Below are positions 13,878-44,061 of a DNA stretch of 64,000 nt, piece after piece. The translations under genes and the position numbers were made by a program. Numbering within the stretch: position 1 is the first letter of the stretch; each line of letters opens with the position of its first letter. The DNA lies in the IMG/VR virus record IMGVR_UViG_3300047472_000248, positions 52,315 through 116,314 of that record. One strand, 5' to 3'. Under the pieces are notes generated by a model. It saw only the letters and a program-made list of their open reading frames with translations, ran no database searches and was not told the DNA's origin. This DNA comes from a virus (lineage: Duplodnaviria > Heunggongvirae > Uroviricota > Caudoviricetes).

Positions 13878-15086
13878 ATGAGCGAAGTCGCCACCGTCGA
13901 AGAACTCGACACCCGGATCAGCTGCGAAATCTGTGGTGCCAAGTGCCACGGCATTCAGACGCACCTGAAGGATGATCACGCCGACTGGACATTGGCACGC
14001 TACGAGAAGGAGTTCCCCGGCAAGCCGCTGCTCTCCGAGCTGGCCAAGATGAAACTCGCCGAGCACCAGGCCGCAAAGAAGGCTGCCGCAAACCCGGCGT
14101 CGTCATCAGTCAGCACTGACTCGAAGCAGCGCGCTGAGACGAAGTTCTTCCATGAAGTCTTCGGGCTGGGCATGGTGCCGGCGGCGCTCAGCACCCCGTC
14201 GAAGGACGGGAAAAAGAAGGCACGGCCGATCCCGATCACGACGCTGATCAACACGCCGGAATCGCAGCCGATGGTGCCGGCGATCGACCCGAACTACGTC
14301 TTCAACCTCGACGTCCTCAAGAGCGTGATGCTTGCCGCCGAGATGGGCGTCGCGGCCTATCTCTGGGGCCACGCCGGCACGGGGAAGACCTCCCTGTTCG
14401 AGCAGCTGTTCGCGCGGACCAACCGCCCGATGATCCGGGTGCAGCACACCGCCAACATGGAAGAGTCGCACATCGTCGGCCAGTGGGTGCTGCGTGAGGG
14501 CGAGACGGTGTTCGAACTCGGCCCGCTGCCGCTGGCCATGATCAATGGGTGGGTCTACCTCGCCGACGAATACGACTTCGGCCGCCCCGAGGTGCTGTCG
14601 GTCTACCAGGCCGTGCTCGAGGGCAAGGCGCTGGTGATCAAGGAAGCTGACGCGAAGAACCGCGTCATCAAGCCGCACCCGAACTTCCGCTTCGTCGCGA
14701 CGGGCAACACCAACGGCACGGGCGACGAGTCGGGCCTGTATTCGGGCACGAACATCCAGAACGCCGCCAACTACGAGCGCTTCGCCATCGTCGAGCGCAT
14801 GCCCTACATGGAGCCCGAGCTGGAGGCACGCCTCGTGTCGCAGCAGGCCGCCATCGCGATTCTCGACGCGCGCAAGCTGGTCGACTACGCCGGGCGCATC
14901 CGCACCGAGTTCGACAACGGCAAGGTGACCTCGCCGATCTCCCCGCGCTCGCTGATCTACGCCGGGAAGATCGGGATGATCCGCGCCAACTACCGCATCG
15001 GCCTCGAGAAGGCCTACATCAACCGCCTGTCCTCGGTCGACCGAGAGACGGCATTGCAATTCGCCCAGCGCGTTTTCGGAGCTTGA
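13878..15086 (+). CDS. AAA+ ATPase, CobS/MoxR-like
   Basis: Walker A GHAGTGKTS, Walker B-like VYLADEYD; N-terminal Cys/His cluster CEICGAKCHGIQTH. Confidence 0.65.
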   Translation: MSEVATVEELDTRISCEICGAKCHGIQTHLKDDHADWTLARYEKEFPGKPLLSELAKMKLAEHQAAKKAAANPASSSVSTDSKQRAETKFFHEVFGLGMVPAALSTPSKDGKKKARPIPITTLINTPESQPMVPAIDPNYVFNLDVLKSVMLAAEMGVAAYLWGHAGTGKTSLFEQLFARTNRPMIRVQHTANMEESHIVGQWVLREGETVFELGPLPLAMINGWVYLADEYDFGRPEVLSVYQAVLEGKALVIKEADAKNRVIKPHPNFRFVATGNTNGTGDESGLYSGTNIQNAANYERFAIVERMPYMEPELEARLVSQQAAIAILDARKLVDYAGRIRTEFDNGKVTSPISPRSLIYAGKIGMIRANYRIGLEKAYINRLSSVDRETALQFAQRVFGA

Positions 15087-15742
15087 GCATGACGGCAGTA
15101 ACCAAAGAGCAGTTCGCCAACGACGGCAGCTATGAGTCGGTCGAGCGCATGTTGCGCCAGCTGGCGGGCAAGTGCTTCAAGCGCGTGTCGGGCATGGGTC
15201 TTTCGATGGACTTCGATGACTGCATGGGCATCATGAACGTCGGCTATGCCGAGTCCCTGCGCACCTGGGACCCCGAGAAGTCCAAGTTCGCGACGTGGTG
15301 CCAGTTCGTCGGGCTGCAGCACTTCAACCGCGCGATCGCGAAGGAAGAGCGCGAACGTGCCGAGATGGGCATGGTGTCCTTCACCGACATCATGGGCTCG
15401 AGCGAGGAGGGCAGCGACGACTTCACCGAGTTCTTCGCGGCCGCCGAGTCCGATGCAGAAGAGGCGCCCGACGAGCGACGGGCCCGGTTCGAGCTGAACA
15501 TGGAGCGTCTGCGCACGCTGTCGCCGGCGGCCAAGCGCCTGGTCAAGGCGCTGATCGAGTCGGAGATGGCCGTCAGCCGCGAGATCGTCACGCTGCACAG
15601 CCTGACCCAAGCCCTGGGCATGGACCCCAAGACCGTCTCCGGCGTCTGCCGTGAGCTGAAGCACGTCTACAGCCTGACGAACCTGCGTGTGGTCGCGCCG
15701 GCCAGGCCGAAGGGCGAAGCGCAGGAGCAGACCGCGGCGTGA
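15083..15742 (+). CDS. sigma-70-family-like RNA polymerase sigma factor
   Basis: region-2-like FATWCQFVGLQHFNRAIAKEER (cf. FxTYAxWWIRQAIxRAI); C-terminal HTH-like region 4. Confidence 0.45.
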   Translation: MSMTAVTKEQFANDGSYESVERMLRQLAGKCFKRVSGMGLSMDFDDCMGIMNVGYAESLRTWDPEKSKFATWCQFVGLQHFNRAIAKEERERAEMGMVSFTDIMGSSEEGSDDFTEFFAAAESDAEEAPDERRARFELNMERLRTLSPAAKRLVKALIESEMAVSREIVTLHSLTQALGMDPKTVSGVCRELKHVYSLTNLRVVAPARPKGEAQEQTAA

Positions 15743-24201: not shown

Positions 24202-24234
24202 GTCGACGGGGCTGCTGCTGACTATCATGAATCG

Positions 24235-25870: not shown

Positions 25871-25897
25871 TCAGTCCTGACTTAGTCTACCTATAAT
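25869..25897 (+). promoter_or_regulatory. AGTCAGTCCTGACT + 9 nt + TATAAT
   Basis: GTAGTCAGTCCTGACTTAGTCTACCTATAATG. Confidence 0.55.
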
Positions 25898-26990: not shown

Positions 26991-27394
26991 TCGCCGCCAC
27001 CGCGGCACTCTGCCTCGCGCTCAACGTGTATCACGAGAGTCGCGGGCAACTGATCCCGGGCCAATACGCCGTCGCGCTCGTGACCATGAACCGTGCCAAG
27101 GTGCTGGGGAGGGTCTGCGCGACGGTGTTCGCACCGAAGCAGTTCAGCTGGGCCAACCACGGGGTTCACCGCACCCGTGCCGGCTGGGTCATCCCGACGG
27201 CCCTACAGCCCCGTGACGAGGGTGCCTGGCAGCTCGCGCAGACCATCGCGAACCGCACCCTGGGCGGCCGCATGCCCGACTTCACCTGGGGCGCCACCTT
27301 CTACCACACGACCGCCGTCTCCCCGGCCTGGCGGCATGCAATGGTGGACATCAAGACGATCGGCGACCACCGTTTTTATGCGGTGCCGCAGTAA
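26987..27394 (+). CDS. SleB-like cell-wall hydrolase (Hydrolase_2 family)
   Basis: NVYHESRGQ...AVALVTMNRAK...FAPKQFSW...ANRTLGG pattern; TTG start. Confidence 0.55.
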   Translation: MIAATAALCLALNVYHESRGQLIPGQYAVALVTMNRAKVLGRVCATVFAPKQFSWANHGVHRTRAGWVIPTALQPRDEGAWQLAQTIANRTLGGRMPDFTWGATFYHTTAVSPAWRHAMVDIKTIGDHRFYAVPQ

Positions 27395-27420
27395 GTCAGG
27401 GCTGACTCGCTACCTATAAT
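27394..27420 (+). promoter_or_regulatory. GTAAGTCAGGGCTGACT + 7 nt + TATAAT
   Basis: after the SleB-like gene stop. Confidence 0.55.
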
Positions 27421-28612: not shown

Positions 28613-30552
28613 AGATCTACTCGCTATCCATCGACAACTTCCTCACGATCGGGAACGCCTGTCTGCAGCTCGCGAGCAAGGGCTTGAACCTGATCGACGG
28701 CGTCAACGACGAAGACAGCTCGGCCACCAGCAACGGGGCGGGCAAGTCCAGCGTCGTCGATGCGCTCTGCTGGTGCCTGCACGGGGTGACGGCACGCGGC
28801 GCGAAGGGAGACGCGATCGTCAACAACGTGGCCAAGAAGGGCACGTGCGTTCAGATTCAAATGGGCGACGAGGTCGTGATCTATCGGGTCACCCGCTACC
28901 GCAAGCATCCGGAGCACAAGAACCAACTTCGCATCGAAATGCGAGCGGTCGGCACGAGTAACTGGGCGGACCTCAGCAAGGGCACCGAGGCGGAGACGCA
29001 GAAGGTCGTCGACCAGGCGCTCGGGTGCACCTACGAGGTCTTCGTGGCGGCCGTCTACGCAGGCCAGGAGAAGATGCCCGACCTGCCCAACATGACCGAC
29101 GCAGAGCTGAAGCGCACGATCGAAGAAGCAGCCGGCATGCGGCGCCTGGAGCGGGCGTTCGAGATCGCCAAGAGCCGGCGCACCGCCGCTGTCGGGGCGC
29201 ACAGCACCGCCGAAGACAAGCTGACCGTGCTGCAAGCCCGCAAGCTGCGGATCGAAACCGACCTCGTCGATGTCGAAGCCCGGATGACTGCCTGGGCCGA
29301 CGGCCGCAAGACAATGATCGATTCGGCAGGACTGATTGTCGAGGTCACGCACGAAAAGCTGCGCACTGCGCGCGTCGCTGTCGGTGCGTGGGACCCGACC
29401 CGCATCGAGCTCGAGGAGCAGAAGGCCAAGATCGACGTCGAGCTGGCCGAACACAGCAAGAAGGCCGCGGCCGTCAAGGCGGCGAGCGATGCTGCCGCGG
29501 CCGCCGACCGGGCGATCGATCGGGCGAAACTGTCGACTGCCACCAGCGCGGTCGCTTCGCTCCAGAAGGACCTCGACAACGCGCCGGCGGCCATGGCCAA
29601 GCCCTGCGGGGAGTGCGGCAAGGCACACACCGCCGACGAGCTGGAGACGTTCACCGCGCACCTGAAAAAGCGGCTCTCGGACGCGCAGCTGACGCTCGGC
29701 TTCATCAAGATCGCCGTCACCGAGCAGGCCAAGACCGCGGTCGCCGCCAAGAAGGCCGCCGAGAAGGCCGCCAGCGAGCTTCCGGACGTGTCGACCCTGG
29801 CCGCTACCCGCCGCGAGCTGGAGAAGCGCCTGGGGCGCACGGCAGAGCTTGCTGCGGCCGTCGAACGCACGATGAAGGACCATGAGGCCGCCAAGGTCAC
29901 GCTCGCGCACCGCAAGGCCGAGCCGAACCCCGATGCCTCGCTGCACGCGACGCTCACGAAGCAGCTGGCCGAGATCGCATCGGAGCTGGGCGGGGCACAG
30001 GCCAACGTCGACAAGCTGCTCGTCGAGCGCGAGGTTGCCGAAGACGTGGTGAAGGTCTTCGGGCCCGCCGGCGTGCGCGCGCAGATCCTCGACACCGTCA
30101 CGCCCTACCTGAACACCCGCACGGCGCACTACCTCTCGGCGCTAAGCGACGGGAACATGGTCGCCACCTGGACGACGCTCACGAAGAACGCCAAGGGTGA
30201 GCTGCGGGAGAAGTTCTCCATCGAGGTGGAGCTCAAGACCGGCGGCGACTCGTTCACGCTGCTGTCGGGCGGGGAGAAGCGCAAGGCACGCCTCGCGTGT
30301 GCCCTCGCGCTGCAGGACCTGGTGGCATCCCGGGCGGCCAAGCCGATCGAGCTCTGGATCGGTGACGAGATAGACGCAGCGCTCGACCCGGCCGGCCTCG
30401 AGCGCCTGATGGGCCTGCTGGAGCTGAAAGCGCGTGACCACGGCACCGTCATCGTCATCTCGCACAACGACATGAAGGACTGGATCGATCGAACGACGAC
30501 CGTGACGAAGGGGACCGATGGCATCTCGACGGTCGCGGGGGCGATGGTATGA
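28609..30552 (+). CDS. sbcC: SbcC/Rad50-like ATPase (T4 gp46-like)
   Basis: Walker A GAGKSS; zinc hook CGECGK in coiled coil; signature LSGGEKRKARLA; Walker B LWIGDEID. Confidence 0.8.
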   Translation: MKIYSLSIDNFLTIGNACLQLASKGLNLIDGVNDEDSSATSNGAGKSSVVDALCWCLHGVTARGAKGDAIVNNVAKKGTCVQIQMGDEVVIYRVTRYRKHPEHKNQLRIEMRAVGTSNWADLSKGTEAETQKVVDQALGCTYEVFVAAVYAGQEKMPDLPNMTDAELKRTIEEAAGMRRLERAFEIAKSRRTAAVGAHSTAEDKLTVLQARKLRIETDLVDVEARMTAWADGRKTMIDSAGLIVEVTHEKLRTARVAVGAWDPTRIELEEQKAKIDVELAEHSKKAAAVKAASDAAAAADRAIDRAKLSTATSAVASLQKDLDNAPAAMAKPCGECGKAHTADELETFTAHLKKRLSDAQLTLGFIKIAVTEQAKTAVAAKKAAEKAASELPDVSTLAATRRELEKRLGRTAELAAAVERTMKDHEAAKVTLAHRKAEPNPDASLHATLTKQLAEIASELGGAQANVDKLLVEREVAEDVVKVFGPAGVRAQILDTVTPYLNTRTAHYLSALSDGNMVATWTTLTKNAKGELREKFSIEVELKTGGDSFTLLSGGEKRKARLACALALQDLVASRAAKPIELWIGDEIDAALDPAGLERLMGLLELKARDHGTVIVISHNDMKDWIDRTTTVTKGTDGISTVAGAMV

Positions 30553-31070
30553 ACGACACCGAGATCGCCCGGGTGCTCGGGATCGGCGACATCAATCCGG
30601 CCGAATGGCAGTGGATGCAGGAGAAGGTCGCGCGACTCGTCAGTGGCCACATTGCAGAGGGCGACAAGTGCCTCGTGACGGTGAGCGGGCCGCGCAAGCT
30701 GCCCTGCACATTGCGCGCTGGCAAGGCAGCGCATGTCGGCATGCCTGTAGCAGTCCCCTTCATGGGTGGCGAACAACTGCTTGTCCAGTCGGTCTTCCAT
30801 CACATCGCTCGCGACACGGTCTTCGTCAGCCTGTCCGCTGCGTGCGCTCGTCTCGCCCGACAGAACGTCAAATCTGTGGACCTGAACTTCGTCGAGGCTT
30901 GCGCCATCTTGGAGGGCTTCGACGCCTGGGTGGCGAAGATCATCGAGCAAACGCCCGGTGCTGCCGATCGCATAACGGGGCGTGAAGAAATGCGCAGGCT
31001 GGAAGAGGCTGCAGAACAACGCGAGCGCGAGTATGAAGCCACGCGCCCGGCACTTTGGGGGACCTGGTAA
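30549..31070 (+). CDS. hypothetical protein
   Basis: 173 aa; ATGA overlap. Confidence 0.45.
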   Translation: MNDTEIARVLGIGDINPAEWQWMQEKVARLVSGHIAEGDKCLVTVSGPRKLPCTLRAGKAAHVGMPVAVPFMGGEQLLVQSVFHHIARDTVFVSLSAACARLARQNVKSVDLNFVEACAILEGFDAWVAKIIEQTPGAADRITGREEMRRLEEAAEQREREYEATRPALWGTW

Positions 31071-31759
31071 TGGACTGGCTAATGGACGACGACCACCGCA
31101 TGCTCGGGCCGGTCGTCAACTCGATCAACCGCCTCTGCAGAAGCGAGCCGATCCCGGTGCAGTTCTATGCGCCGTCGGTGATCTTGCGGGTTGAAGAAAC
31201 AACGGCAGACGAGAACATCGCCGGGACGTTCACCCACGAGGGCCCGGCCTACCCGGTGCTGGTGGGCGCACAGGACTACCCCAGGCCGATGCTCTTCTTC
31301 CGGAAGTTCACCCCTGCCACGGGCAAGGTGAGTGGCGGCAATCGCTACTACATGCCGATGCGCGAGGCATGCGACCAGGTGGTGGGCCTGAGGGGCGCGC
31401 TGGAGGCCATGCTCGGTGTGCCGATCCCATCGAGCGAACTGCCCCGCACATTCGGGCCGCCGGACCCGCCCAAGCAGCCGCCGGAGCCGCTGTGGGAGAG
31501 GTATCCGTTCACGCCATCTGTATTGGTAGGGGCGTCCTGGGTGCCATTGCCACCACCGCCTGCCGCGCCTGTTCCTCCGCCACCCGCCCCGAACCCCGTG
31601 CCTGAGAACCCCTTCGAACCGGAGCCAGGGCCAGAGACGACAGTGGAAGTGCCGGACCTTCCCATCATCAAGGACCAGCCTGCCGAACTCGACGACGACC
31701 TGCTGCACGAGATCGCCGATGCCGCCGACATCCACCCCGAGGGGTGGGGCGCCTGGTGA
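31070..31759 (+). CDS. hypothetical Pro-rich protein
   Basis: TAATG overlap; PPPAAPVPPPPAPNPVP stretch. Confidence 0.45.
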   Translation: MDWLMDDDHRMLGPVVNSINRLCRSEPIPVQFYAPSVILRVEETTADENIAGTFTHEGPAYPVLVGAQDYPRPMLFFRKFTPATGKVSGGNRYYMPMREACDQVVGLRGALEAMLGVPIPSSELPRTFGPPDPPKQPPEPLWERYPFTPSVLVGASWVPLPPPPAAPVPPPPAPNPVPENPFEPEPGPETTVEVPDLPIIKDQPAELDDDLLHEIADAADIHPEGWGAW

Positions 31760-31772
31760 AACCCAAAATCTG

Positions 31773-31817
31773 GCGCCGAGAAAAGTCCGTGCGCCCAAAT
31801 ATGTAACAAGGAAACCC
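31773..31817 (+). promoter_or_regulatory. conserved 45-nt leader element, copy 1
   Basis: GGCGCCGAGAAAAGTCCG...CCCAAATATGTAACAAGGAAACCC immediately before ATG; near-identical to 37691-37736. Confidence 0.5.
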
Positions 31818-32396
31818 ATGAACCCCACCGTCACCATCGTCGGCATCGACCCGAGCTTTCGCAACACCGGGCTGGCACGCGCCAGCTACGACCTCGTGAC
31901 CGGCGAGTGGCAGGTCACGCACCTGCTGCTGTCCGAGACCGAGAAGGGCAAGGCCAAGCTCGTCCGAAAGTCCAGCGACGACCTCTCGCGCTGCAAGATT
32001 CAGCACGACGCCGTCGTCGCCTTCTGCAAGGACGCGCACTTCGCGGTCGCCGAAGTCCCGAGCGGGGCGCAGAGCGCTGCCGCAGCCTTCAGCAACGGGG
32101 TCTGCTGCGCGGTGCTTGCCGCGGTGCCGTGCCCCCTGATCGAGGTCAACCCCACCGAGGTCAAGCTGGCGAGCGTGGGCGACAAGTGGGCCGCGAAGGA
32201 GCAGATGATCGAATGGGCCGTCGCGCGCTTCCCCAAGGCCGGCTGGCTCACCCGTAAGCTGAAGGGCAACGTCGAGCTGGTCGCCAAGAACGAGCACCTG
32301 GCCGACGCCTGTGCCGCGATCGCCGCCGGCCTCAAGACCCAGCAGTTCCTGCAGTCGACCGCGATGCTGAAGGCCGCCATGAGGATTGCTGCCTAA
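31818..32396 (+). CDS. RuvC-like Holliday junction resolvase
   Basis: N-terminal IVGIDPSFRNTGLA (cf. RuvC ILGIDPGSRVTGYG); acidic catalytic residues spaced as in RNase H-like fold. Confidence 0.55.
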   Translation: MNPTVTIVGIDPSFRNTGLARASYDLVTGEWQVTHLLLSETEKGKAKLVRKSSDDLSRCKIQHDAVVAFCKDAHFAVAEVPSGAQSAAAAFSNGVCCAVLAAVPCPLIEVNPTEVKLASVGDKWAAKEQMIEWAVARFPKAGWLTRKLKGNVELVAKNEHLADACAAIAAGLKTQQFLQSTAMLKAAMRIAA

Positions 32397-32415
32397 AAGT
32401 TCGCCTTACATGGTA

Positions 32416-32429
32416 AGTCAGGCCTGACT
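32416..32429. promoter_or_regulatory. AGTCAGGCCTGACT palindrome
   Basis: family member preceded by GTA; no clear TATAAT. Confidence 0.5.
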
Positions 32430-32479
32430 GACGTAGCATCGCTGCCCCTTTCCGATCGATAACAACAGGAGTTCCCTGA

Positions 32480-34819
32480 ATGCATTCCTCATGGGACACG
32501 CCGGCGCGTGTCTACGCCCCGGGCATCGGTGACGCCGTCGCCGACCGCACCGTCAACCGCAAGCTCGACCCCACCACCCGCCAAGAACTCCCGGCCTGGA
32601 CCGAGAAGGGCGCCGACCCGCGCCCGTTCGCCCGTGAAGTCTGGGCAGACGTCGCCAAGCGCGTCGCCCTGGGAAACACCGGCCTGCGCGACCAGGACGC
32701 CCCGTTCGAGTTCGAACCGCTGCACCACCACCTGCGCCAGGCATCGCTGCTGATGTCGGGCCGCCACCTGCAGCACGGCGACCTGCACCAGTCGACCCGC
32801 AACCAGGAAGTCTTCACGAACTGCAGCACGGCCGCCGCCAGCTTCCTCGAGTTCTACCTGCTGCTCAACGGCTCGGGCGTCGGCCGCAGCTACGACGACG
32901 CGATGATGCTCGTCGACTGGCGCAAGATGCCCAAGGTGCGCGCGTGCCTGCGCCCCGACCATCCGGACGTGGTGAGCGGCGAGATCGCCGACCCGAACGA
33001 CGAAAGCTACGGCGACTACGTGCACATGCACGTGATGCATGTCGAAGACAGCCGCGAGGGCTGGGCGAAGGCGGTCGAGAAGATCGAGTTCATGACCTGG
33101 CTCGGCGTGCACCGCGACGACGTGCTGCTGATCGACTTCTCGGATGTGCGCCCCCGCGGCGCCCCGATCGGTGGCATGCAGAACCGGCCGGCCAGTGGCC
33201 CGGGCCCGCTGATCGAAGCGATCCGCAAAACCGCCAAGCTGCGCGACGCCGGCATGGAGCCCTGGGAGGCCACCATGCACGCCGACCACTACTACGCCGA
33301 GTGCGTGCTGGTGGGCGGGGCGCGCCGGGCTGCCCGCATGGCGACGAAGAGCTGGCGCGACAAGAGCGTGCTGCGCTTCATCGACATCAAGAAGGGCGGG
33401 GTGCTCTGGAGCTCCAACAACTCCATCACGGTCGACGAGGAGTTCTGGGAGGGCGTGCGCAACGTGAAGCGCTTCGTCGATGCGGGTCACACGCGCATTG
33501 TGGCGACCGACCTCGAGTGGCATGCCTTCAAGGTCTTCCAGGCTACCACCAAAGCCTCCTACTTCCACAAGACCGGCGAGCCCGGCTTCATCAACGTCGA
33601 CAAGCTGACGCAGAAGAACGAAGGCGTCGAGATGCTGTTCGACGGCCAGTTCGCGGGCAGCAAGCGCTTCCAGCTCGAACCCGAGACGGAGATGCTGACG
33701 ATGGCGCTGGCATCGGTCTTCGCCAAGCTGCCGTTCTCGATGATCGTGAACCCGTGCGGCGAGATCCCGCTGTCACTGCTGGGCGGCTACTGCGTGATCG
33801 CGGACACCGTGCCCTACCACGCACAGCCGGTTTGGGGTCCTAGTTGGCGCAGCACCGAGCAGTGGCATGCAGCATGGGATCACGAGGCAGAGGCAGCCTT
33901 CCGCACGGGCGCCCGTGCGCTGATCCGCACCAACACGATGGACTGCCTCTACCACAAGGAAGTCCAGCGCACGAACCGCATCGGCGTGGGCTTCACGGGC
34001 ATCTTCGAATACGCCTGGGCCCGCTTCGGCTTCGGGTGGAAGGACCTGGTGGATGAGCAGCGCTCGCTTGCCTTCTGGCAGACGATGTCCCGCTTCAGCA
34101 ACGCCGCCGTCGACGAGGCACGCAGCTACTCGGCCAAGCTGGGCGTGGCGATGCCGCACACCGTCACGACTGTGAAGCCGGCCGGCACGACCAGCAAGCT
34201 CTTCGGACTGACCGAGGGGGCGCACCTGCCGAGCATGCGCAAGTATCTCCGCTGGGTGCAGTTCCGCAACGACGACCCGCTGATCGAGCAATACGCTGCC
34301 AAGGGCTACCCGATCAAGCGTCTGAAGACCTATAGCGGCACGACCGTGGTGGGCTTCCCGACGGTGCCGGAGATCTGCAAGCTGGGCATGGGTGACGCGC
34401 TCGTGACGGCAGGGGAGGCAACGCCTGAAGAGCAATACGAGTGGCTCCGGCTGCTCGAGAAGTATTGGCTTAACGGCTACGAAGACACCGTGCGCGGCGG
34501 AGACATCTGCGTGGGTGGCCACGGCTGTGCCGGCCAGGTCAGCTACACGCTGAAATACAAGCCGGAGCTGGTGAGCTTCGAGGACTTCCAGCGCACGCTG
34601 CTGGAGGGCCAGTCGTCCATCAAGTGCTGCTCGGTGATGCCGCAGACGGACACCTCCGCCTACGAGTATCAGCCCGAAGAGCCGATCAGCGACGAGGACT
34701 TCGACGCCTTGGTCGCACGGATCAACGATCCCGAGATGAAGCAGAGCATCGGTTTCGAGCACGTGGACTGCGCGTCGGGTGCCTGCCCTATCGACTTCTT
34801 GGGCAGCGAAGCCGCGTAA
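32480..34819 (+). CDS. nrdJ: ribonucleotide reductase, class II (adenosylcobalamin-dependent, NrdJ-like)
   Basis: 779 aa single chain; active-site MIVNPCGEIPL motif; C-terminal Cys pair. Confidence 0.75.
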   Translation: MHSSWDTPARVYAPGIGDAVADRTVNRKLDPTTRQELPAWTEKGADPRPFAREVWADVAKRVALGNTGLRDQDAPFEFEPLHHHLRQASLLMSGRHLQHGDLHQSTRNQEVFTNCSTAAASFLEFYLLLNGSGVGRSYDDAMMLVDWRKMPKVRACLRPDHPDVVSGEIADPNDESYGDYVHMHVMHVEDSREGWAKAVEKIEFMTWLGVHRDDVLLIDFSDVRPRGAPIGGMQNRPASGPGPLIEAIRKTAKLRDAGMEPWEATMHADHYYAECVLVGGARRAARMATKSWRDKSVLRFIDIKKGGVLWSSNNSITVDEEFWEGVRNVKRFVDAGHTRIVATDLEWHAFKVFQATTKASYFHKTGEPGFINVDKLTQKNEGVEMLFDGQFAGSKRFQLEPETEMLTMALASVFAKLPFSMIVNPCGEIPLSLLGGYCVIADTVPYHAQPVWGPSWRSTEQWHAAWDHEAEAAFRTGARALIRTNTMDCLYHKEVQRTNRIGVGFTGIFEYAWARFGFGWKDLVDEQRSLAFWQTMSRFSNAAVDEARSYSAKLGVAMPHTVTTVKPAGTTSKLFGLTEGAHLPSMRKYLRWVQFRNDDPLIEQYAAKGYPIKRLKTYSGTTVVGFPTVPEICKLGMGDALVTAGEATPEEQYEWLRLLEKYWLNGYEDTVRGGDICVGGHGCAGQVSYTLKYKPELVSFEDFQRTLLEGQSSIKCCSVMPQTDTSAYEYQPEEPISDEDFDALVARINDPEMKQSIGFEHVDCASGACPIDFLGSEAA

Positions 34820-34849
34820 TAAATCACGCAGCCAGCGGGAGGGGCTCAC

Positions 34850-34874
34850 TATAATGAGTAAGTCAGCCCTGACT
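34850..34874 (+). promoter_or_regulatory. TATAAT followed by AGTCAGCCCTGACT palindrome
   Basis: CACTATAATGAGTAAGTCAGCCCTGACTG. Confidence 0.55.
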
Positions 34875-34976
34875 GTTGATCAAATCGACTGGCCAGAGCC
34901 GGCGCTTCCACCGATCAATCTGTGGAATGCGCCCGCCCTGGTCACAAGGTCACCATCATTTTTGAAGGAGAAACCC

Positions 34977-35429
34977 ATGACCAAGACCAGCTACACCGCC
35001 GACGTGCGCCCCGCGAAGGGCTACGTCGCGCTCGACGGCGTCACCTACGAGACGCAGAAGGCCGCGATCACCGCGAGCCACGACTTCAAGGTCATGGCGG
35101 CCCTGAAGGACTTCGCGGCAGCATGCCCGAGCTTCGACGGCACCGAGCCGAAGGACGGCGCGACGTTCGACGACCGTGACAACCCGGTGCTCTACCAGGA
35201 CGGTCTGGCGACGTTCATCTTCGTGCATCGCAACGCCATCCTCGCCGCTCTGAAGCAGGAAGTCTCGCTGCGCAAGCCTTACGCCCGCAAGCCGAAGACG
35301 CCGGCGGCGCCCGGCCTGCGCGGTGCCGTGCTCACCCAGGGCGACGCCGATGCCGACCTCGCGGGCACCCCGCGGCCGAACAACGCGACCGTCAGCCTGA
35401 AGGGCACCGATCTGCCGATCGCGGCCTGA
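34977..35429 (+). CDS. hypothetical protein
   Basis: 150 aa; RBS GAAGGAGAAACCC. Confidence 0.5.
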   Translation: MTKTSYTADVRPAKGYVALDGVTYETQKAAITASHDFKVMAALKDFAAACPSFDGTEPKDGATFDDRDNPVLYQDGLATFIFVHRNAILAALKQEVSLRKPYARKPKTPAAPGLRGAVLTQGDADADLAGTPRPNNATVSLKGTDLPIAA

Positions 35430-35628
35430 CCGATCAACGGCGCAGTCGCAAGCGAAAACAAGTAGTGATCCCAGGCACTGATAAGGCCTGGGCGAGTGAA
35501 CGGAAGTAGCTGGGCGAGGCTAATCAGACACGCGCGATGCACACGGACCTCTGGTTCAAGTCCGCTCTCTCGCATGTGATCGCCGTCGGATCGTTCCCGA
35601 CCTGCGTCTCCACCCTTCCGGAGGTTCG

Positions 35629-35820
35629 ATGTTCAAGCTCGTCCTGATCGCAGCGCTGGTCTTCGCCTTCGCCTGTTGGTTCATCAACATCGCTCGCAAG
35701 CGCGAGCGGAAGGTGGTTACCACAACGCTGCGCAAGGGCCTCATCCCGCTCGTGATCGGCATCGTCACCCTGTGCGTGCTGATCGCGGTTCTTCTTCTCC
35801 CTTCCATCAAGGTGATCTGA
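35629..35820 (+). CDS. small two-TM membrane protein (possible NfeD-like partner of the SPFH protein)
   Basis: 63 aa, two hydrophobic helices; RBS GGAGG. Confidence 0.45.
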   Translation: MFKLVLIAALVFAFACWFINIARKRERKVVTTTLRKGLIPLVIGIVTLCVLIAVLLLPSIKVI

Positions 35821-35823
35821 CCC

Positions 35824-36663
35824 ATGAAAAGACTCTTCTCCCTGTTCCTGATCGCGTCGTTCGCGCTGCTTGCGGGCTGCACCCGCATCGACAGCGGCAA
35901 CATCGGCATCGACAACACCCTCGGCCAGGTCAAGAGCGAAACGCTCAGCTCCGGCTACTACAGCACGGTCTTCAAGAACGTCCTCGAGATCAGCGGCAAG
36001 CAGACGCACATCGCCTTCGACGGGCTCAAGCCCAAGTCGAAGGACAACATCACGATGGACGACTTCGACGCCGACATCTACTACTCGATCAACTCGTCCG
36101 ACGCCCCCAAGATCCTGACACGCTTCGCCGGTGACATGCAGGCACAGCACGTGCCGGACGGCCAGCACGACGACGGCTCGATGCTGATCGGCAGCAACTT
36201 CGTCAAGCGAATGGCGCGCAGCGCGATCTTCGACGTGGCACAGGGGCACAACGCGGCCGACATGAACGCAGCCCGCAACGACATCGAGAAGGCGATCGCA
36301 ACGCAGCTGCAGGCAATGCTCGACGAGCACGCCGGCAAGGGGTGGTTCAAGGACGTCAACGTCACCGTGCGCAGCATCGTCCCGGACCGCAACCTGCAGG
36401 AACAGATGCGCCTGAACGCCGACCGCACCTTCAAGCTGGCCGCCAAACAGAAGGAGATCGAGCTTGCCAATGCCGAAGCGCAGCGCCTGGCAGCCGAAGC
36501 CCAGGGCGTCGCGAAGGCCAACGAGATCATCAGCGCGTCGCTGACGCCGCAGCTGCTCCGCATGCGTGAGATCGAGACGCAGGCCAAGTTTGCCAGCGCG
36601 GGCACCCACACCGTGATCATGGGCGGCAGTGGCGCAGTCCCGCTCGTCCAGGTCAGCAAGTAA
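35824..36663 (+). CDS. SPFH/band-7 family lipoprotein
   Basis: signal peptide with lipobox LLAGC; SPFH core plus coiled-coil AEAQRLAAEAQGVAKANEII. Confidence 0.6.
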   Translation: MKRLFSLFLIASFALLAGCTRIDSGNIGIDNTLGQVKSETLSSGYYSTVFKNVLEISGKQTHIAFDGLKPKSKDNITMDDFDADIYYSINSSDAPKILTRFAGDMQAQHVPDGQHDDGSMLIGSNFVKRMARSAIFDVAQGHNAADMNAARNDIEKAIATQLQAMLDEHAGKGWFKDVNVTVRSIVPDRNLQEQMRLNADRTFKLAAKQKEIELANAEAQRLAAEAQGVAKANEIISASLTPQLLRMREIETQAKFASAGTHTVIMGGSGAVPLVQVSK

Positions 36664-36750
36664 CCAGCGTCGGGAGACGTCAGAGGCCCGGGAGGGCTTC
36701 CGCATGGGACCCCACAGCCCAAGCGAAAACCTTCCCCAAAGGAGACACAC

Positions 36751-37671
36751 ATGACCACGCAGATCAGCGCCAAGGTCATCGCCGACAGCATCAGCGGCGA
36801 CGACATGCGGCTCACAACCCTCCAGCTCTGCTACCCGCGCTTCATCCACGCAGAAGCGAAGACCCACCGCATTCTGAGCGCGGACTCGGAGCAGGTCGTC
36901 GTGCACACCGGCTCGGCCGGGTTCATGGACGACCCGATGCTGTCGCGCAACGCATCCTCGAGCCGGGCGATCCCAGTCGCGAAGATGATCGAGCAGGTGC
37001 GCAACGACCCGGCGATGCCGGTGCACTGGGGTAAGAACGTCGCCGGCATGCAGGCGCGGGAAGAGCTCACCGGCGACGCGCTCGATGCTGTCAGGTCCTT
37101 GTGGCTTGCAGCTGCGCGTGGTGCGGCAGACCTCGCCGAAAGGATGATGCGACTGGGCGGCCACAAACAGGTCGTCAACCGCATCCTGGAGCCCTTTCAG
37201 TGGATGCACGTCATCGTGACAGCCACCGAGTGGGACAACTTCTTCGAGCTGCGCGACCACGAAGACGCCGAGCCCAACATCCAGGTGCTCGCGCGCTGCA
37301 TGAAAGAGGCGAGGGCGGCATCGACGCCGATCAAGCGCTACGCCAGCGAGGACGGGCGGTGGGAGTCGTCGTGGCACCTGCCCTACGTGGCCGACGCGGA
37401 GCGCGAGCTGTATCGTCTCGACGTGCTGCGCAAGGCATCGGTCGCCCGCTGCGCCCGGGTGTCCTTCCTGAATCACGACGGCACTTACCCGGTGATCGCC
37501 AAAGACGTCGACCTCTACGACCGCCTGGTCGGCGCCCGGCCGCTGCATGCGAGCCCCACCGAGCACGTCGCGATGGCGCTGAAGCACAAAGGCTTCGTCA
37601 AGAACCTTCGCGGCTGGGAGCAGCACCGCGTCGCGGTCGAGAAGATCCACGCACCGAGCGTCTTCGCCTGA
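36751..37671 (+). CDS. flavin-dependent thymidylate synthase ThyX-like protein
   Basis: ThyX-like segments (ATEWDNFFELR cf. NxRxxxHFxxLR); the RHR-x-S signature is degenerate (THRILS). Confidence 0.4.
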   Translation: MTTQISAKVIADSISGDDMRLTTLQLCYPRFIHAEAKTHRILSADSEQVVVHTGSAGFMDDPMLSRNASSSRAIPVAKMIEQVRNDPAMPVHWGKNVAGMQAREELTGDALDAVRSLWLAAARGAADLAERMMRLGGHKQVVNRILEPFQWMHVIVTATEWDNFFELRDHEDAEPNIQVLARCMKEARAASTPIKRYASEDGRWESSWHLPYVADAERELYRLDVLRKASVARCARVSFLNHDGTYPVIAKDVDLYDRLVGARPLHASPTEHVAMALKHKGFVKNLRGWEQHRVAVEKIHAPSVFA

Positions 37672-37690
37672 TTTTCAAAACCGGCATTTC

Positions 37691-37736
37691 GGCGCCGACG
37701 AAAGACCGATTCCCCAAATATGTAACAAGGACACGA
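37691..37736 (+). promoter_or_regulatory. conserved 45-nt leader element, copy 2
   Basis: GGCGCCGACGAAAGACCG...CCCCAAATATGTAACAAGGACACGA immediately before ATG. Confidence 0.5.
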
Positions 37737-38396
37737 ATGGACTTCCAGACCTTCCAACCGCTCGCCTGCGCCACCGAGTCCGTGCCGGCCGAGATTCCCG
37801 ACCACGTCGACTTCTCCGTGGTCCTGGGCGTGCTGAACGGCATCGTGGCGCTCTCCAAGGCCTGCAGCACGCTGCACCGGGCGATCTACTACTCGTCCCC
37901 GGAAAAGACCGTGGCGGTCGATTACGACGCCCTCGAGCGCGCCGGGATCAAGCTGCCCCCTGCGTGCCCCTCGCAGTTCGTGCCCGAGCGGATCGACCTG
38001 CGCGTGCTGCACTGCGTCGTCGGCAAGGCCGCCGAGACGGGCGAACTGGCCGAGCTGGTGCTGCGCGCAGCCTTCGGAGAGGGCTTCGACAAGCACGAGT
38101 TCAAGAAGGAGCTCGGCGACGGCCGCTGGTATGACGCCATCGGCCTGGACGCGGTCGGCTGCAACGACGAGGGCCCGATCCTCGACGCGATCATCGAGAA
38201 GCTGCGCAAGCGCTACGGCGACAAGTTCGACGGGCTTGCGGCCGTCAATCGCGACACCCGCGTCGAGGACATCGCCGCGTGGGCCGCAATGGAGCGGCAG
38301 AACCACACCCTGCAGACTCAGGTGCGGTCGCTGCCGGCGACGGACCGCGAAGTGCGCGAGGTCAGCATCGAAGAGCTGAAGGCGGACCTGGCGTGA
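37737..38396 (+). CDS. hypothetical protein
   Basis: 220 aa; start directly after leader element. Confidence 0.5.
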   Translation: MDFQTFQPLACATESVPAEIPDHVDFSVVLGVLNGIVALSKACSTLHRAIYYSSPEKTVAVDYDALERAGIKLPPACPSQFVPERIDLRVLHCVVGKAAETGELAELVLRAAFGEGFDKHEFKKELGDGRWYDAIGLDAVGCNDEGPILDAIIEKLRKRYGDKFDGLAAVNRDTRVEDIAAWAAMERQNHTLQTQVRSLPATDREVREVSIEELKADLA

Positions 38397-39034
38397 TCAC
38401 GCTCGCGGGTAGCCACAGAACAGGGAAGACGACGCTCGCGCACGCCTTTGCCCAGGCGCAGGGCATCCCCTTCCTGCGCACGTCTGCTGTCGAGGCTTTC
38501 AGAGCGATGGGGAAGGACCCGAAGGTCCAATACCCCATCGAAGAGCGCTTTGCCATCCAGAAGGCGCTGCTGCACGTATTCGTCAAGCAATACGTCTCGG
38601 CGCAGCAGAGCGCCGGCACGAGCGGGCTTTTCATCACCGACCGGTCGCCGCTCGACCTGGCGGCCTACATGCTCGCCGACATGAACCGCGGCACCGCCGA
38701 CAGCGGGATGGGGCAGGCAGTCAAGGACTTCGTCGGCGAGTGCATCGACGCGACGAATCGCTTCTTCTCGCTCGTGATGGTCGTCCAGCCTGGCATCCCG
38801 GTGACGGAAGAGGAGGGTAAGGCGCCCACCTGCCCCGGCTACATGGAGCACCTCAACACGCTCATGCTCGGACTGCTGCTCGACCCTCGGCTTGCGAGCG
38901 CGCACTACTACATCCCGCGGGCCTACGTCGCGCTGGAGACGCGCCTGCAGGCGACCTACAACGTGGTGCGCTCGCTTATGGAAGCGCAGGTCGAGGCAAC
39001 CCGCACATATCGGGGGGCGAAAGCCTTACACTGA
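38393..39034 (+). CDS. P-loop NTPase, predicted nucleotide kinase
   Basis: Walker A GSHRTGKTT near N-terminus; GTGA overlap start. Confidence 0.45.
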   Translation: MITLAGSHRTGKTTLAHAFAQAQGIPFLRTSAVEAFRAMGKDPKVQYPIEERFAIQKALLHVFVKQYVSAQQSAGTSGLFITDRSPLDLAAYMLADMNRGTADSGMGQAVKDFVGECIDATNRFFSLVMVVQPGIPVTEEEGKAPTCPGYMEHLNTLMLGLLLDPRLASAHYYIPRAYVALETRLQATYNVVRSLMEAQVEATRTYRGAKALH

Positions 39035-39036
39035 TC

Positions 39037-39055
39037 AGTCAGCCCTGACTATAAT
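39037..39055 (+). promoter_or_regulatory. AGTCAGCCCTGACTATAAT palindrome/-10 unit
   Basis: GATCAGTCAGCCCTGACTATAATGGG directly after the kinase stop. Confidence 0.6.
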
Positions 39056-39076
39056 GGGCACAGCTAGAACGACACC

Positions 39077-39105
39077 GAGACACCCGAAAAGGTGTCTCCT
39101 TTTTA
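39077..39105 (+). terminator. promoter-proximal intrinsic terminator / attenuator
   Basis: GAGACACC-CGAAAA-GGTGTCTC 8-bp stem then CTTTTTAT; followed by mini-ORF ATG GTC GCT GAC GGT TAG (39105-39122). Confidence 0.6.
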
Positions 39106-39120
39106 TGGTCGCTGACGGTT

Positions 39121-39134
39121 AGTCAGCCCTGACT
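39121..39134. promoter_or_regulatory. AGTCAGCCCTGACT palindrome abutting RBS TAGGAG
   Basis: same 20-mer AGTCAGCCCTGACTTAGGAG as at 11239. Confidence 0.55.
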
Positions 39135-39144
39135 TAGGAGCACG

Positions 39145-39555
39145 ATGGACGCAGTGCCGAGCCCACGTGAAGAACTCGAACGCAAGGCGGTCGAGACACT
39201 CGAGGACATCGAGTGGCGCCGGCAGCAGGGCACCTTGAGCGGCGATGCCGCGGCCGCTGCAGCGCGGGCGATCTACCACGTGACCAGCGGGCTCGTGGAC
39301 TACTCGGTGACCGAGCTGGTGCAGGCGGTCGAAGCCCAGGCAAGCCCGATCATGAAGCGCCACTTCCTCGAACGCGCCACCGGCACCTCGGTCGTCATCG
39401 GCTGGAACCGCACGCGCCAGGTCTTCGGGATTGTGAAGCGCCAGGTCGGGCAAGACCCCAAGGTCAACCGCATCGAGTGCGGCGAAGAACCCCCGCCCGA
39501 GAAGATCGCCAAGGTCGTCAAGGCCCTGACCGCCAAGGGCTACATCGAAATCTGA
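39145..39555 (+). CDS. hypothetical protein
   Basis: 136 aa; RBS TAGGAG. Confidence 0.5.
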   Translation: MDAVPSPREELERKAVETLEDIEWRRQQGTLSGDAAAAAARAIYHVTSGLVDYSVTELVQAVEAQASPIMKRHFLERATGTSVVIGWNRTRQVFGIVKRQVGQDPKVNRIECGEEPPPEKIAKVVKALTAKGYIEI

Positions 39556-39572
39556 ACCCACGAAAGGAATCT

Positions 39573-40061
39573 ATGAGCAACATCCTCTCCCGCATGCGCG
39601 ATCTGGTTGTCTACAACAGCGAGCACCACGCGCTGGCGCTCTCCCTGAAGCTGGAGAAGCTGCCGGTGAACGAGCGTCGCAAGTGGTTCGGCGGCTCGCA
39701 CCCGACCGGCTGGCTCTACCTCTTCCGCGACCCCGAGTTCCCCGACATCGTGCTGGAGACGGTGCAGTCGCAGTTCGGCGGGGACGCGATCACCAGCACC
39801 TACATCGGCAACCACAGCTCACTCGCCAACGTCGGCACGCTGATCAGCGCACGCGAAGACCTGATCCGTGCGATCGCGCAGGAGATCGGGCTCAGCATCC
39901 CCGCGATCGGCATCCCGGACCCGGTGCGCGGCCGCGACCTGTCGCTGAAGGAGCTCTCCACCGGCCAGCTGATCGACCTGCTGGCAGAGCGCAACGGCGT
40001 CGGCCTGATTCAGGTCGTCAGCGACACGCACAACGTCGCCGCGCCGATCGCGACGGTCTGA
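39573..40061 (+). CDS. hypothetical protein
   Basis: 162 aa; RBS GAAAGGAATCT. Confidence 0.5.
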   Translation: MSNILSRMRDLVVYNSEHHALALSLKLEKLPVNERRKWFGGSHPTGWLYLFRDPEFPDIVLETVQSQFGGDAITSTYIGNHSSLANVGTLISAREDLIRAIAQEIGLSIPAIGIPDPVRGRDLSLKELSTGQLIDLLAERNGVGLIQVVSDTHNVAAPIATV

Positions 40062-40358: not shown

Positions 40359-40739
40359 ATGGACGACTTTCAGAAGCGCGTCGACGAGTGGATGCTCGTC
40401 TGCTTCAACGAGACGATCGCGGCCGACGTGGTCGAGCGCAGCCACCGCTTTCTCGAGGAGGCGATCGAGCTCGCCCAGGCATCGGCCTGCACCGCCAACG
40501 AGGCGCACCAGCTGGTGGACTACGTCTTCAGCCGTCCCGTCGGTGAGCGCACGCAGGAGGTGGGCGGGGTAGGGGTCACGCTCGCTGCGCTCTGCACGGC
40601 CTACGGCATCGACATGCAGGCGGCGTTCGGCGCCGAGATCGCCCGGTGCTTCACCAAGGTCGCGCAGATTCGCGCCAAGCAGGCCATGAAGCCCAAGTTC
40701 GGCCCGCTGCCCGGCAGCACGTTCGCGGTTGCTGCATAG
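40359..40739 (+). CDS. MazG-like nucleotide pyrophosphohydrolase
   Basis: all-alpha 126 aa with EEAIEL (EExxEL-type) metal-binding motif. Confidence 0.4.
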   Translation: MDDFQKRVDEWMLVCFNETIAADVVERSHRFLEEAIELAQASACTANEAHQLVDYVFSRPVGERTQEVGGVGVTLAALCTAYGIDMQAAFGAEIARCFTKVAQIRAKQAMKPKFGPLPGSTFAVAA

Positions 40740-40757
40740 CCGACGCGCAGCGCCCAA

Positions 40758-40774
40758 AGTTCAACCATCGCAAC
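40758..40774 (+). promoter_or_regulatory. class-2 motif AGTTCAACCATCGCAAC
   Basis: 17 nt upstream of RBS GGGG and ATG 40792. Confidence 0.5.
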
Positions 40775-40791
40775 ACGTTAGGGGAAATCAC

Positions 40792-42256: not shown

Positions 42257-42483
42257 GCCAAGAAACGACCCCCTGGTTCAACACCGTCCGTGACGGCCAA
42301 CCGCTCGAGCACCGTCCGGGCGTCTACAAAACGTCGGGGCGCAAGAACGCACGGAAGACCTTCTGGCGGCGCTACGAAGCGGGCTGGTGGTCGGTGCCGT
42401 GCGCGACGTTCGAATACGCCCAGACGGCGCCGATCTCCATCCACTACCTGCCGCCGCTGTGGTGGCAAGGGACGACGGGATGA
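42253..42483 (+). CDS. hypothetical protein (paralog B)
   Basis: 76 aa; tandem paralog of 42029-42256. Confidence 0.4.
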   Translation: MSQETTPWFNTVRDGQPLEHRPGVYKTSGRKNARKTFWRRYEAGWWSVPCATFEYAQTAPISIHYLPPLWWQGTTG

Positions 42484-43725: not shown

Positions 43726-44061
43726 ATGAACATCGAACGCCTGAAATTCGCTGTCGCCCGGGGTGCCCGGGTGCAGATCAGAACGGGGGCCGAACCGGAG
43801 TGGCGTGACCACCCGTCGGGCTACCTGGGCTACCGGCACGCCGACTATCGCGTGCACCCGGACGACGCAGCGCTCGAATACGGGCCGCTATCTGCAGCGC
43901 TGAAACATCGGATCGTGTGGTCCGAGTGGACTGAAGGCGCCGCTGCCGCTTTGATATTCGCGCGGCACCTTGGATTCGAACAGGTGCACTACGCGAGCGA
44001 CGCCGAGCATCTTCACTACTGGGACTTCGTCGCCGAATACCTGGCGGACCAAGGACTATGA
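43726..44061 (+). CDS. hypothetical protein
   Basis: 111 aa (alternative start 43714). Confidence 0.4.
   Translation: MNIERLKFAVARGARVQIRTGAEPEWRDHPSGYLGYRHADYRVHPDDAALEYGPLSAALKHRIVWSEWTEGAAAALIFARHLGFEQVHYASDAEHLHYWDFVAEYLADQGL

Follow-up and report, generated by a model that had tools for sequence, protein, structure and literature searches.

Intergenic elements before the RuvC-like and MazG-like genes of an uncultured phage: a family-wide cassette and candidate promoter class

What is the short sequence that stands, in nearly the same form, directly before two genes of different function in an uncultured phage, and what might it do there? The question arises in a 64-kb stretch of DNA (hereafter the window: positions 52,315 to 116,314 of IMG/VR record IMGVR_UViG_3300047472_000248, Caudoviricetes), which is part of a phage genome of ~116 kb. 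One copy, E1, precedes a gene for a RuvC-like Holliday-junction resolvase (31818..32396, + strand; phrog_159, E 7.5e-43) and the other, E2, a gene for a MazG-like pyrophosphatase (37737..38396, + strand; phrog_229, E 4.9e-21). Judged by their sequences, E1 and E2 are the form that a family-wide intergenic cassette takes in this lineage, neither a recent duplication nor an orphan. The cassette is previously undescribed, and is a new variant of phage regulatory cassettes already known in kind. Its notable feature in the window is that the downstream of its two boxes appears to have been replaced by an identical 19-mer at two old loci. As to function, the reading we favour, which we regard as evenly balanced between right and wrong, is a two-part, phage-specific promoter class with its start site at or adjoining the ATG.

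The two copies and their counterparts in related phages

The initial annotation had described a two-copy repeat before the RuvC-like gene and a 220-aa open reading frame (ORF), and this repeat is real. Exact copies of the 19-mer CCCAAATATGTAACAAGGA lie at 31794-31812 and 37713-37731, both on the + strand, with collinear flanks. The intervals 31759-31823 and 37678-37742 align without gaps at 74% identity (repeat family D15), and gapped local alignment of the two copies with their flanks scores 52, compared with 19.5 +/- 2.5 (maximum 29) for shuffled sequences. No third match to the 19-mer is present in the window at <=3 mismatches, where shuffles expect 0, and no further copy at <=6 edits. Immediately 5' of the 19-mer, 22 of 35 nt are identical between the copies (63%). 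The AT-richness seen by the initial annotation was likewise borne out, the 19-mer having 32% G+C in a genome of 64% G+C.

At both loci the element makes up the entire intergenic gap: E1 (31760..31817, +; gapless to E2) lies between a 234-aa ORF (31055-31759) and the RuvC-like gene, and E2 (37672..37736, +) between ThyX (36751-37671) and the MazG-like gene. The 3' end of the 19-mer is 5 nt before the ATG in each copy (ATG 31818 for E1, ATG 37737 for E2), with the Shine-Dalgarno sequence AAGGA (31808-31812 and 37727-37731) at -10 to -6. This ribosome-binding site (RBS) had rightly been placed within the element, but identity does not extend right up to the ATG as had been stated, since the 5 intervening nt differ (AACCC and CACGA). 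An upstream box, GGCGCCGA..AAAG.CCG, is shared ~22 nt 5' of the 19-mer in both copies, at 31772..31787 in E1 (GGCGCCGAGAAAAGTC, +) and 37691..37706 in E2 (GGCGCCGACGAAAGAC, +). The start of GGCGCCGA had been given correctly for the second copy, at 37691, whereas in the first copy it is at 31772 and not at 31773. The 19-mer is the downstream box of the element, and in E1 two hexamers within it are candidate -10 sequences, TATGTA (31800-31805, +) and TAACAA (31804-31809, +). A third site that had been proposed before the 51540 gene (TGTAACAA at 51509) is not significant. TGTAACA occurs four times in the window against ~2.5 expected from base composition (an arithmetic estimate), and the 51509 region aligns to E1 with a score of 19, which is reached elsewhere in the window by chance.

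We then read the intergenic regions of relatives, defined as contigs whose RuvC is 56-64% identical to that of the window. These contain a recurrent cassette, with 11 instances in L026, L029, L184, L217, L218 and L219. It is composed of an upstream box, (T/C)GGCGCCGA(A/G)AAAA(G/C)T, usually inside a hairpin, and a downstream box, CCTATAAGCAC, i.e. CC(C)TATAAG(C/G)AC, which is followed by a leader and the start codon. Measured between the first bases of GCCGA and TATAAG, the spacing is 29-30 nt in 11/11 instances, and the intervening sequence is divergent. Distances from TATAAG to the start codon are 6, 11, 11, 15, 19, 19, 21, 21, 21, 34 and 60 nt, and the longer leaders have a separate Shine-Dalgarno sequence 3' of the TATAAG box. 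A count over ~124 kb gave 14 CTATAAG sites on the + strand against a single one on the - strand. Those + strand sites that were read in context are intergenic and 5' of genes.

The genes served by the cassette correspond to those served by E1 and E2. RuvC is preceded by it in L029 and L219, and in L026 it precedes a ProQ-like gene overlapping RuvC. Orthologues of the MazG-like gene stand behind it in L029 (26% identical full-length, E 8e-15) and L217, as does a dUTPase, in the post-ThyX position, in L026 and L218. Like these instances, E1 and E2 are intergenic, on the coding strand and before orthologous genes (RuvC; the MazG-like gene or dUTPase after ThyX). E1 is nearly superimposable on the RuvC cassette of L219 (L219 TGGCGCCGAGAAAACTCCGCGCC... 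and E1 TGGCGCCGAGAAAAGTCCGTGCGCC...), the length from box to ATG being 46 nt in E1 and 45 nt in L219.

A sequence-only model (A2/R1) was built from the 11 cassettes of the relatives, with the window copies excluded, and run over the whole window on both strands with filters off. The best window match of model R1 is E1 (31767-31790, 15.6 bits, E 7e-4) and the second best is E2 (37686-37708, 10.3 bits, E 0.035); besides these it finds no copy in the window. Both alignments involve model positions 3-26 only, that is, the upstream box, so that the boxes of E1 and E2 are recognized by R1 as homologues of the family box GGCGCCGA(A/G)AAAAgT. Because relatives have orthologous cassettes at both loci, both window copies are old. 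Thus the repeat before two genes stands, but the local duplication implied by the initial annotation does not, and what relatives share with the window is the homologous cassette and not the exact 19-mer, which is absent from all of those examined.

The downstream box of the relatives, CC(C)TATAAG(C/G)AC, is absent at E1 and E2, and CCTATAAG is found nowhere in the window. At the family offset of 29/30 nt from GCCGA the window reads TAACAA/AACAAG, with TATGTA at offset 25. Nineteen identical bases in a row, given a flank identity of 63%, have p ~1.5e-4 (arithmetic from the alignment). An identical 19-mer at two old loci therefore suggests concerted change or box-restricted conversion, or else strong sequence-specific constraint. 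A possible partial relative of the downstream box, TCGATAACAACAGGAG, is present in the leader of the class II ribonucleotide reductase (RNR) gene (32456..32472, +), where the likeness is weak and is accompanied by no upstream box; at this position most relatives have CCTATAAGGA(G) or a one-base variant.

We considered whether the repeat is a functionless recombination scar or the product of recent gene conversion, in which a linker was copied between two module boundaries, and judge this very improbable. There are two copies only, the 19-mer is missing from the relatives and from exact-match scans of viral and metagenome contigs, and both elements are at sites of variable gene content, all of which would favour such an origin: the 234-aa ORF before RuvC is missing in L028, L029 and L031, and in some relatives dUTPase replaces the MazG-like gene. 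However, the homologous cassettes at both loci in relatives make the elements old, the register to the ATG is preserved, and upstream halves that are 63% identical beside an identical 19-mer point to selection, or to conversion limited to the box.

The cassette was not found in more distant relatives from metagenome-assembled genomes (RuvC 41-54% identical). L234, which has the closest RuvC (64%), has no intergenic region before RuvC and has its RNR behind a TATAAG-type box, and for these reasons no transitional form was found. The RuvC-like protein has 193 homologues at E <= 1e-10, and since the nearest RuvC among 5.8 billion proteins is only 64% identical, no close relative has been sequenced. 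The nearest named phages are the Rhizobium phages P11VFA, RHph_I4 and L338C (RNR ~54% identical), and a literature search on these Rhizobium-phage relatives found no description of regulatory motifs. Degenerate two-box patterns searched in IMG/VR gave mostly chance matches and two true family contigs. Exact scans with an 18-mer (viral contigs) and a 17-mer (metagenome contigs) returned unrelated low-G+C chance matches only, and megablast, together with blastn of the cassette of one relative, against GenBank phages returned nothing related. No curated RNA family of Rfam 15 matches the window at gathering score; a relaxed Rfam search gave only a chance-level match near E1 (E 4.2), and a search of the relatives gave tRNAs only.

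Two further matches concern the 19-mer. One enterobacterial sequence (~50% G+C) also has the 17/18-mer CCAAATATGTAACAAGGA, 11 nt 5' of an ATG, and recurs in many prophage-like contigs (L001-L023 and many of L032-L150); this is a chance match, unrelated to the window. Nine nucleotides inside the 19-mer, GTAACAAGG (31803-31811 and 37722-37730), equal a stretch near the 3' end of 16S rRNA, which we take to be E. coli positions 1497-1505. This stretch falls within the common ITSF primer GTCGTAACAAGGTAGCCGTA, and E1 matches 13/15 nt. The match is probably a coincidence, with a chance probability estimated at roughly 0.05.

Promoter, translational operator or hairpin

Of the three readings in the initial annotation (a translational operator, a site for an RNA-binding protein, a third promoter class) the last has the best support. 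An operator is still a live alternative for the window copies, but fits the relatives poorly. In the cassette the spacing of the two boxes is fixed and the distance to the start codon is free, which is the signature of a two-part promoter and not of a translational operator. From this, from the placement before orthologous genes and from the phage's own sigma factor gene, we infer promoter activity, a start site and a reader.

In the proposed promoter, positions from about -45 to -30 would be occupied by the upstream box, GGCGCCGA(A/G)AAAAgT, standing in for a -35 element and read by a phage factor. The candidate is the extracytoplasmic-function (ECF)-like sigma factor encoded at 15083-15742, and an activator of the host RNA polymerase would be the alternative. 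The downstream box would provide the -10 region, which is CCTATAAGCAC in the relatives and the 19-mer here, with TAACAA or TATGTA as its hexamer, and the transcript would begin 0-6 nt 5' of the ATG. Each of the two genes, RuvC and MazG-like, would have a short-leader or leaderless transcript of its own, besides read-through from upstream operons, and the embedded AAGGA would be the ribosome-binding site of the read-through transcripts. The inverted repeat at the upstream box would probably serve as an insulator or partial terminator for upstream transcripts, which is the least certain part of the scheme.

Several features of the family are consistent with a promoter. The TATAAG box of the relatives differs by one base from the -10 context in their own TATAAT promoters (CCCTATAAT, in L218 and L219, versus CCCTATAAG), and model positions 27-45 match TATAAT promoters of the window at 25878-25896 and 27384-27419. 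Leaderless starts appear to be in the family's repertoire, because the layout of a -10 hexamer, 6 nt and ATG recurs across relatives. The window gene after RecA has TATCAT-GAATCG-ATG at 24235 (24217-24237) without a Shine-Dalgarno sequence, and a -10-like hexamer (TATCAT, TATGAT or TATAGT) with 6 nt and ATG, again without a Shine-Dalgarno sequence, is found at 3029-3043 of L026, 3898-3912 of L029 and 3311-3325 of L217. In the window and in these three relatives the gene with this layout is a conserved small gene after RecA; the layout also precedes other genes, at 431-445 of L028 and 180-194 of L031. At L219 RuvC the cassette itself reads TATAAG, CATCCC and ATG, with no Shine-Dalgarno sequence.

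At 9965-9985 of L029 the TATAAG box is followed, after 6 nt, by a mini-ORF of 5 codons (ATG CTT AAT CTA CCG TGA), the stop of which is 12 nt before the RuvC ATG. This could be a leaderless leader peptide or a chance occurrence.

A phage-specific promoter class has a plausible reader, because the window encodes a divergent ECF-like sigma factor (15083..15742, +; Pfam Sigma70_r2 E 3.1e-5, at the curated cut-off). Its TIGR02937 match (E 1.8e-6) spans regions 2 to 4, and its nearest homologues are only 38-40% identical. The gene has a CobS-like AAA_5 ATPase gene on one side and, on the other, a 192-aa gene and then DnaE; the order AAA_5, sigma factor, 190-aa gene is also found in one relative.

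A number of observations weigh against the promoter. That the sigma factor reads E1 and E2 is a connection that we infer from its presence in the genome. A consensus scan of 30000-40000 found no sigma-70 promoter (0 sites). TTGACA/TATAAT-like elements 16-18 nt apart are not present, TATGTA and TAACAA both being without the final T, and neither box resembles the sigma-70 consensus. In the relatives the hexamer has G at -7 in 11/11 instances, which is unfavourable for sigma-70 (T is preferred). The -10 of the window is ambiguous: TAACAA (8 nt from the ATG) has the spacing of the family and a sequence poorly suited to a -10, whereas TATGTA (12 nt from the ATG) is the better -10 in sequence but stands 4-5 nt nearer to the upstream box. 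The well-placed AAGGA belongs to the conserved block, as would suit a role in translation, and a transcript that started there would not include it. Hairpin pairs of the G.U type on the + strand (L184, L219, L217) hint at a role at the RNA level, and there are just two copies in 64 of ~116 kb. ECF-type -35 readings of TGTAAC or GCAAC were also tried and rejected: no conserved -10 lies at 16-17 nt, and transcripts would start inside the genes.

A more specific proposal, which is tentative and which we think unlikely to be right, is that the downstream box was re-specified in concert from CCTATAAGCAC to CCCAAATATGTAACAAGGA at two old and independent loci of one lineage, with no change of upstream box or geometry. 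This would record a switch in the sequence specificity of a phage-encoded reader that evolves together with its sites; the fast-evolving ECF-like sigma factor, whose nearest homologues are <=40% identical, would be an example.

The position of AAGGA brings in start-associated translational control. Here the 19-mer RNA, including the Shine-Dalgarno sequence, would be bound by a phage or host factor, or would act as an unstructured A/U-rich enhancer, and through it RuvC and the MazG-like gene would come under joint translational control. We rate this as unlikely, though as an alternative worth weighing. In each copy AAGGA closes the conserved block at the same 5 nt from the ATG, and the 19-mer, besides its low G+C content, is unpaired in both minimum-free-energy folds. 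The targets are of the nucleotide-metabolism and recombination type that is governed by RegA in T4. The start-associated sequence (SAS) of cluster K phages is likewise an RBS-containing 13-bp block near start codons, often with an upstream inverted repeat (PMC3203893). In the relatives, however, the box is 6-60 nt from the start codon and the Shine-Dalgarno sequence is usually separate and downstream, or missing as in L219 RuvC. A constant box spacing of 29-30 nt is not required by such an operator, and the Rfam searches give it no match. No RegA-like or other RNA-binding repressor was found among the ~60 window proteins scanned (Pfam, a few also with PHROGs/NCBIfam), which are not all of the ORFs.

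We treat the hairpin around the upstream box as real. In E1 it is GGCGCCG.AG-AAAG-UC.CG.UGCGCC (31772..31795, +), the upstream box forming the left arm and loop, with a predicted energy of -11.8 to -12.5 kcal/mol (z -2.2 to -2.4) that is matched by 5/200 and by 3% of 300 shuffles. The hairpin of E2 is degenerate (z +0.65; 49-mer z +1.8). Over all instances 9/13 fold better than 95% of shuffles. The two window copies fold differently, the arms pair in different registers across instances, and in some the A run falls within the stem and not the loop.

We asked on this basis whether the cassette is a hairpin in the RNA between two cistrons, where it would end, pause or stabilise the transcript from upstream, with nothing behind it but a plain RBS region whose identity is inherited and has no specific reader. 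We find this doubtful. It is favoured by the fold of E1 and of most other instances, and by G.U pairs that form on the + strand only, with one compensatory change (GCCGAG/CUCGGC versus GCCAAG/CUUGGC). U-rich tracts follow the stem in several relatives (the L217 MazG-like gene, the L219 75-aa gene and L184), and a real terminator of the window (39077-39098) has a similar C-GAAAA-G loop. Yet a scan for intrinsic terminators found none at E1 or E2, where there is no T run and the E1 stem is followed by CAAATATG. The E2 hairpin is no better than shuffles, and RNAalifold over 13 instances found no common structure. A plain terminator is unlikely in L029 and L217 because the cassette sits only a few tens of nt 3' of a TATAAT promoter with a palindromic operator, and termination at that place would defeat this promoter. 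The invariant downstream box and the 19-nt identity would also be left unexplained. The hairpin does not have the form of a lambda-type nut site, since the A-rich loops vary in size and register and no boxA-like partner was seen.

Likeness to described phage cassettes

The closest described layout is that of the cluster K mycobacteriophages. Their SAS is a conserved block of 13 bp, RBS included, found 3-7 bp 5' of the ATG in non-structural genes and, in half of the cases, behind an imperfect inverted repeat; from phage to phage it goes with the same gene families, and its consensus varies by subcluster (Pope et al. 2011, PMC3203893). In Adephagia the extended start-associated sequence (ESAS), a 46-47 bp intergenic motif with SigA-like -35/-10 hexamers 17-18 bp apart and an inverted repeat, sits upstream of the SAS (PMC11373665). 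The function of ESAS/SAS was still called unverified in 2025 (PMC12699233).

The family described here is similar in several respects. Its cassette is conserved, intergenic, in one orientation and found before non-structural genes only; a short, RBS-containing conserved block lies a few nt before the ATG; the upstream part of ~45-50 bp has an imperfect inverted repeat; and the same gene families are served across related phages, with a consensus that varies by sub-lineage. For an RBS block 3-9 bp before a start codon, the window has its two copies of the 19-mer 5 nt before the ATG, with an inverted repeat at E1. In contrast, the SAS consensus GGGATAGGAGCCC with <=2 mismatches (as defined in PMC3203893 and PMC12699233) is not found in the elements, the sequence of which is unrelated. 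ESAS/SAS belong to ~60 kb phages of actinobacterial hosts and have 11-19 SAS copies per genome, compared with two seen here in 64 kb. Outside the lineage of the window the downstream box usually does not adjoin the start codon, and the right arm of the inverted repeat here is conserved neither in sequence nor in register. The analogy is one of layout, and E1 and E2 are an analogue of ESAS/SAS and not a member.

Other comparisons bear on single parts of the proposed promoter, for whose mechanism T4 middle promoters and promoters that depend on phage sigma factors serve as models. Middle promoters of T4 have a MotA box at about -30 and a sigma-70 -10, and are used through sigma appropriation by AsiA/MotA. 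They resemble the proposed promoter in having, instead of a -35, an upstream box peculiar to the phage whose distance from a -10-like hexamer is constant, and in standing before genes of DNA metabolism, often in tandem with early promoters. They differ in that the box is unrelated, the hexamer here has no T at -7, and no MotA/AsiA homologue was found among the window proteins scanned. Promoters of gp36, the ECF-like sigma factor encoded by phiEco32, have a single -10-region element and not two parts. This phage, like that of the window, encodes its own divergent sigma factor and has a promoter consensus other than that of the host, whereas here the box is in two parts and the pairing of sigma factor and element is a proposal. 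In leaderless-mRNA promoters such as lambda PRM-cI the -10 hexamer is 6-8 nt before the ATG. The start at or next to the start codon is common to both, and the layout is used by the family (window 24235, L219 RuvC), but E1 and E2 carry a good Shine-Dalgarno sequence and have no TAnnnT exactly 6 nt before the ATG.

On the RNA side, the operators of T4 RegA and gp43 are sites at the translation initiation region of replication and nucleotide-metabolism genes, that of gp43 being a hairpin and then a single-stranded region with the Shine-Dalgarno sequence. In all their targets these operators overlap either the AUG or the Shine-Dalgarno sequence, unlike the boxes of the relatives, and the conserved block of the window stops 5 nt short of the AUG. 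The absence of RegA applies to the ~60 scanned proteins, which leaves further ORFs and ~52 kb of genome outside the window. The promoter-early stem-loop (PeSL) of T4-type phages, reportedly described by Arbiol et al. in 2010, is said to be a mobile cassette with an ordinary sigma-70 early promoter. Both are repeated promoter-plus-stem-loop cassettes at the boundaries of variable modules. Here, however, the stem-loop precedes the promoter-like box, and there is no evidence of cassette-mediated shuffling.

Module, neighbouring motifs and implications

E1 and E2 are located in a module for recombination and nucleotide metabolism, all on the + strand. Its order is SbcD, SbcC, a 173-aa gene, the 234-aa gene, E1, RuvC-like, class II RNR, an SPFH-domain gene, ThyX, E2, MazG-like and an AAA_28 kinase-like gene, and then the terminator at 39077. 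The 234-aa ORF was considered as a ProQ-like RNA chaperone, as found in L026 and L234, and no similarity was found.

A second motif class, D5, has the form (t)GCCGA-N12-ACAGTTCA-N3-5-TCGCAAC(A). Copies are at 1795-1831, 40739-40775 (+ strand; GCCGA-N12-AAAGTTCA-N4-TCGCAAC), 49308-49344 and 52515-52551, as given by repeat-family and pattern searches. Looser copies are at 49763-49799, 53568-53603, 57748-57783 and 59396-59431, with hexamers at 49793, 53597, 57777 and 59425. Small genes without assigned function follow, their start codons 15-21 nt (in one case 53 nt) downstream, and D5 is conserved in L219 at about 19790-19830. Its GCCGA-like anchor is 29 nt before the hexamer TCGCAA, the same offset as in E1 and E2, and this shared anchor at a shared offset suggests one architecture, of which E and D5 would be sibling classes. 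The pattern GCCKA-N24-TMRCAA, which was chosen after seeing the data, has six window hits against 0.2 expected, all intergenic and on the + strand.

A third motif is a 14-bp palindrome, AGTCAGnnCTGACT, which lies beside, over or just 3' of TATAAT-type -10 boxes in a dozen intergenic regions. Its sites are at 13779-13809, 19951-19988, 20995-21032, 25858-25896, 27376-27419, 32398-32429, 34843-34874, 39026-39056, 39103-39134, 51409-51434, 51519-51531, 53969-54006 and 62560-62575. It is kept in relatives as AGTCA(c/g)nnnTGACT (L026, L028, L029, L217-L219, L234 and L235). Its appearance is that of an operator at which a repressor or other regulator of the phage would govern sigma-70-type promoters, comparable to stoperators.

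Elsewhere in the window, a - strand block (7037-11052) contains a TrfA-like replication initiator (7971-8771), a ParA/MinD-type ATPase (9504-10163) and a helix-turn-helix protein (10468-10977). These form a plasmid-like module for replication and partition, and the phage could have a phage-plasmid lifestyle. The DnaE-type DNA polymerase III alpha (16560-19961, +) has a C-terminal domain of the uracil-DNA-glycosylase superfamily (residues 986-1124), a fusion also present in L029. Accessory genes include an RtcB RNA ligase (44823-46073), an AlkB-like 2-oxoglutarate-Fe(II) oxygenase (44058-44627) and an RNase T/DnaQ-like exonuclease (42480-43061), as well as a CobT-like VWA protein paired with the CobS-like AAA_5 ATPase (11402-15086). 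At the very end of the window (63981-63997) is a run of 17 G, followed by CCCC; an artefact of assembly, the terminus of the genome and a homopolymer tract are possible explanations.

If the promoter reading is wrong, E1 and E2 would amount to an ordinary shared ribosome-binding region. If it is right, they would represent an undescribed regulatory class for an uncultured family of ~110-kb phages that carries DnaE, gp32-like, RecA, SbcCD, class II RNR and ThyX, and whose members are distant relatives of Rhizobium phage L338C. The cassette would give a handle on the middle-phase programme for recombination and nucleotide-metabolism genes. With two old sites that came to have the same new 19-mer, it would also be a compact test of joint change in a phage reader and its DNA sites, and it would be a second independent case of an inverted repeat, a promoter-like box and a start-associated block, a combination whose function has been open in cluster K since 2011. 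Should the switch in specificity also be true, the family would offer a natural, small and tractable case of promoter-reader co-evolution, and a proteobacterial counterpart of the unexplained ESAS/SAS.

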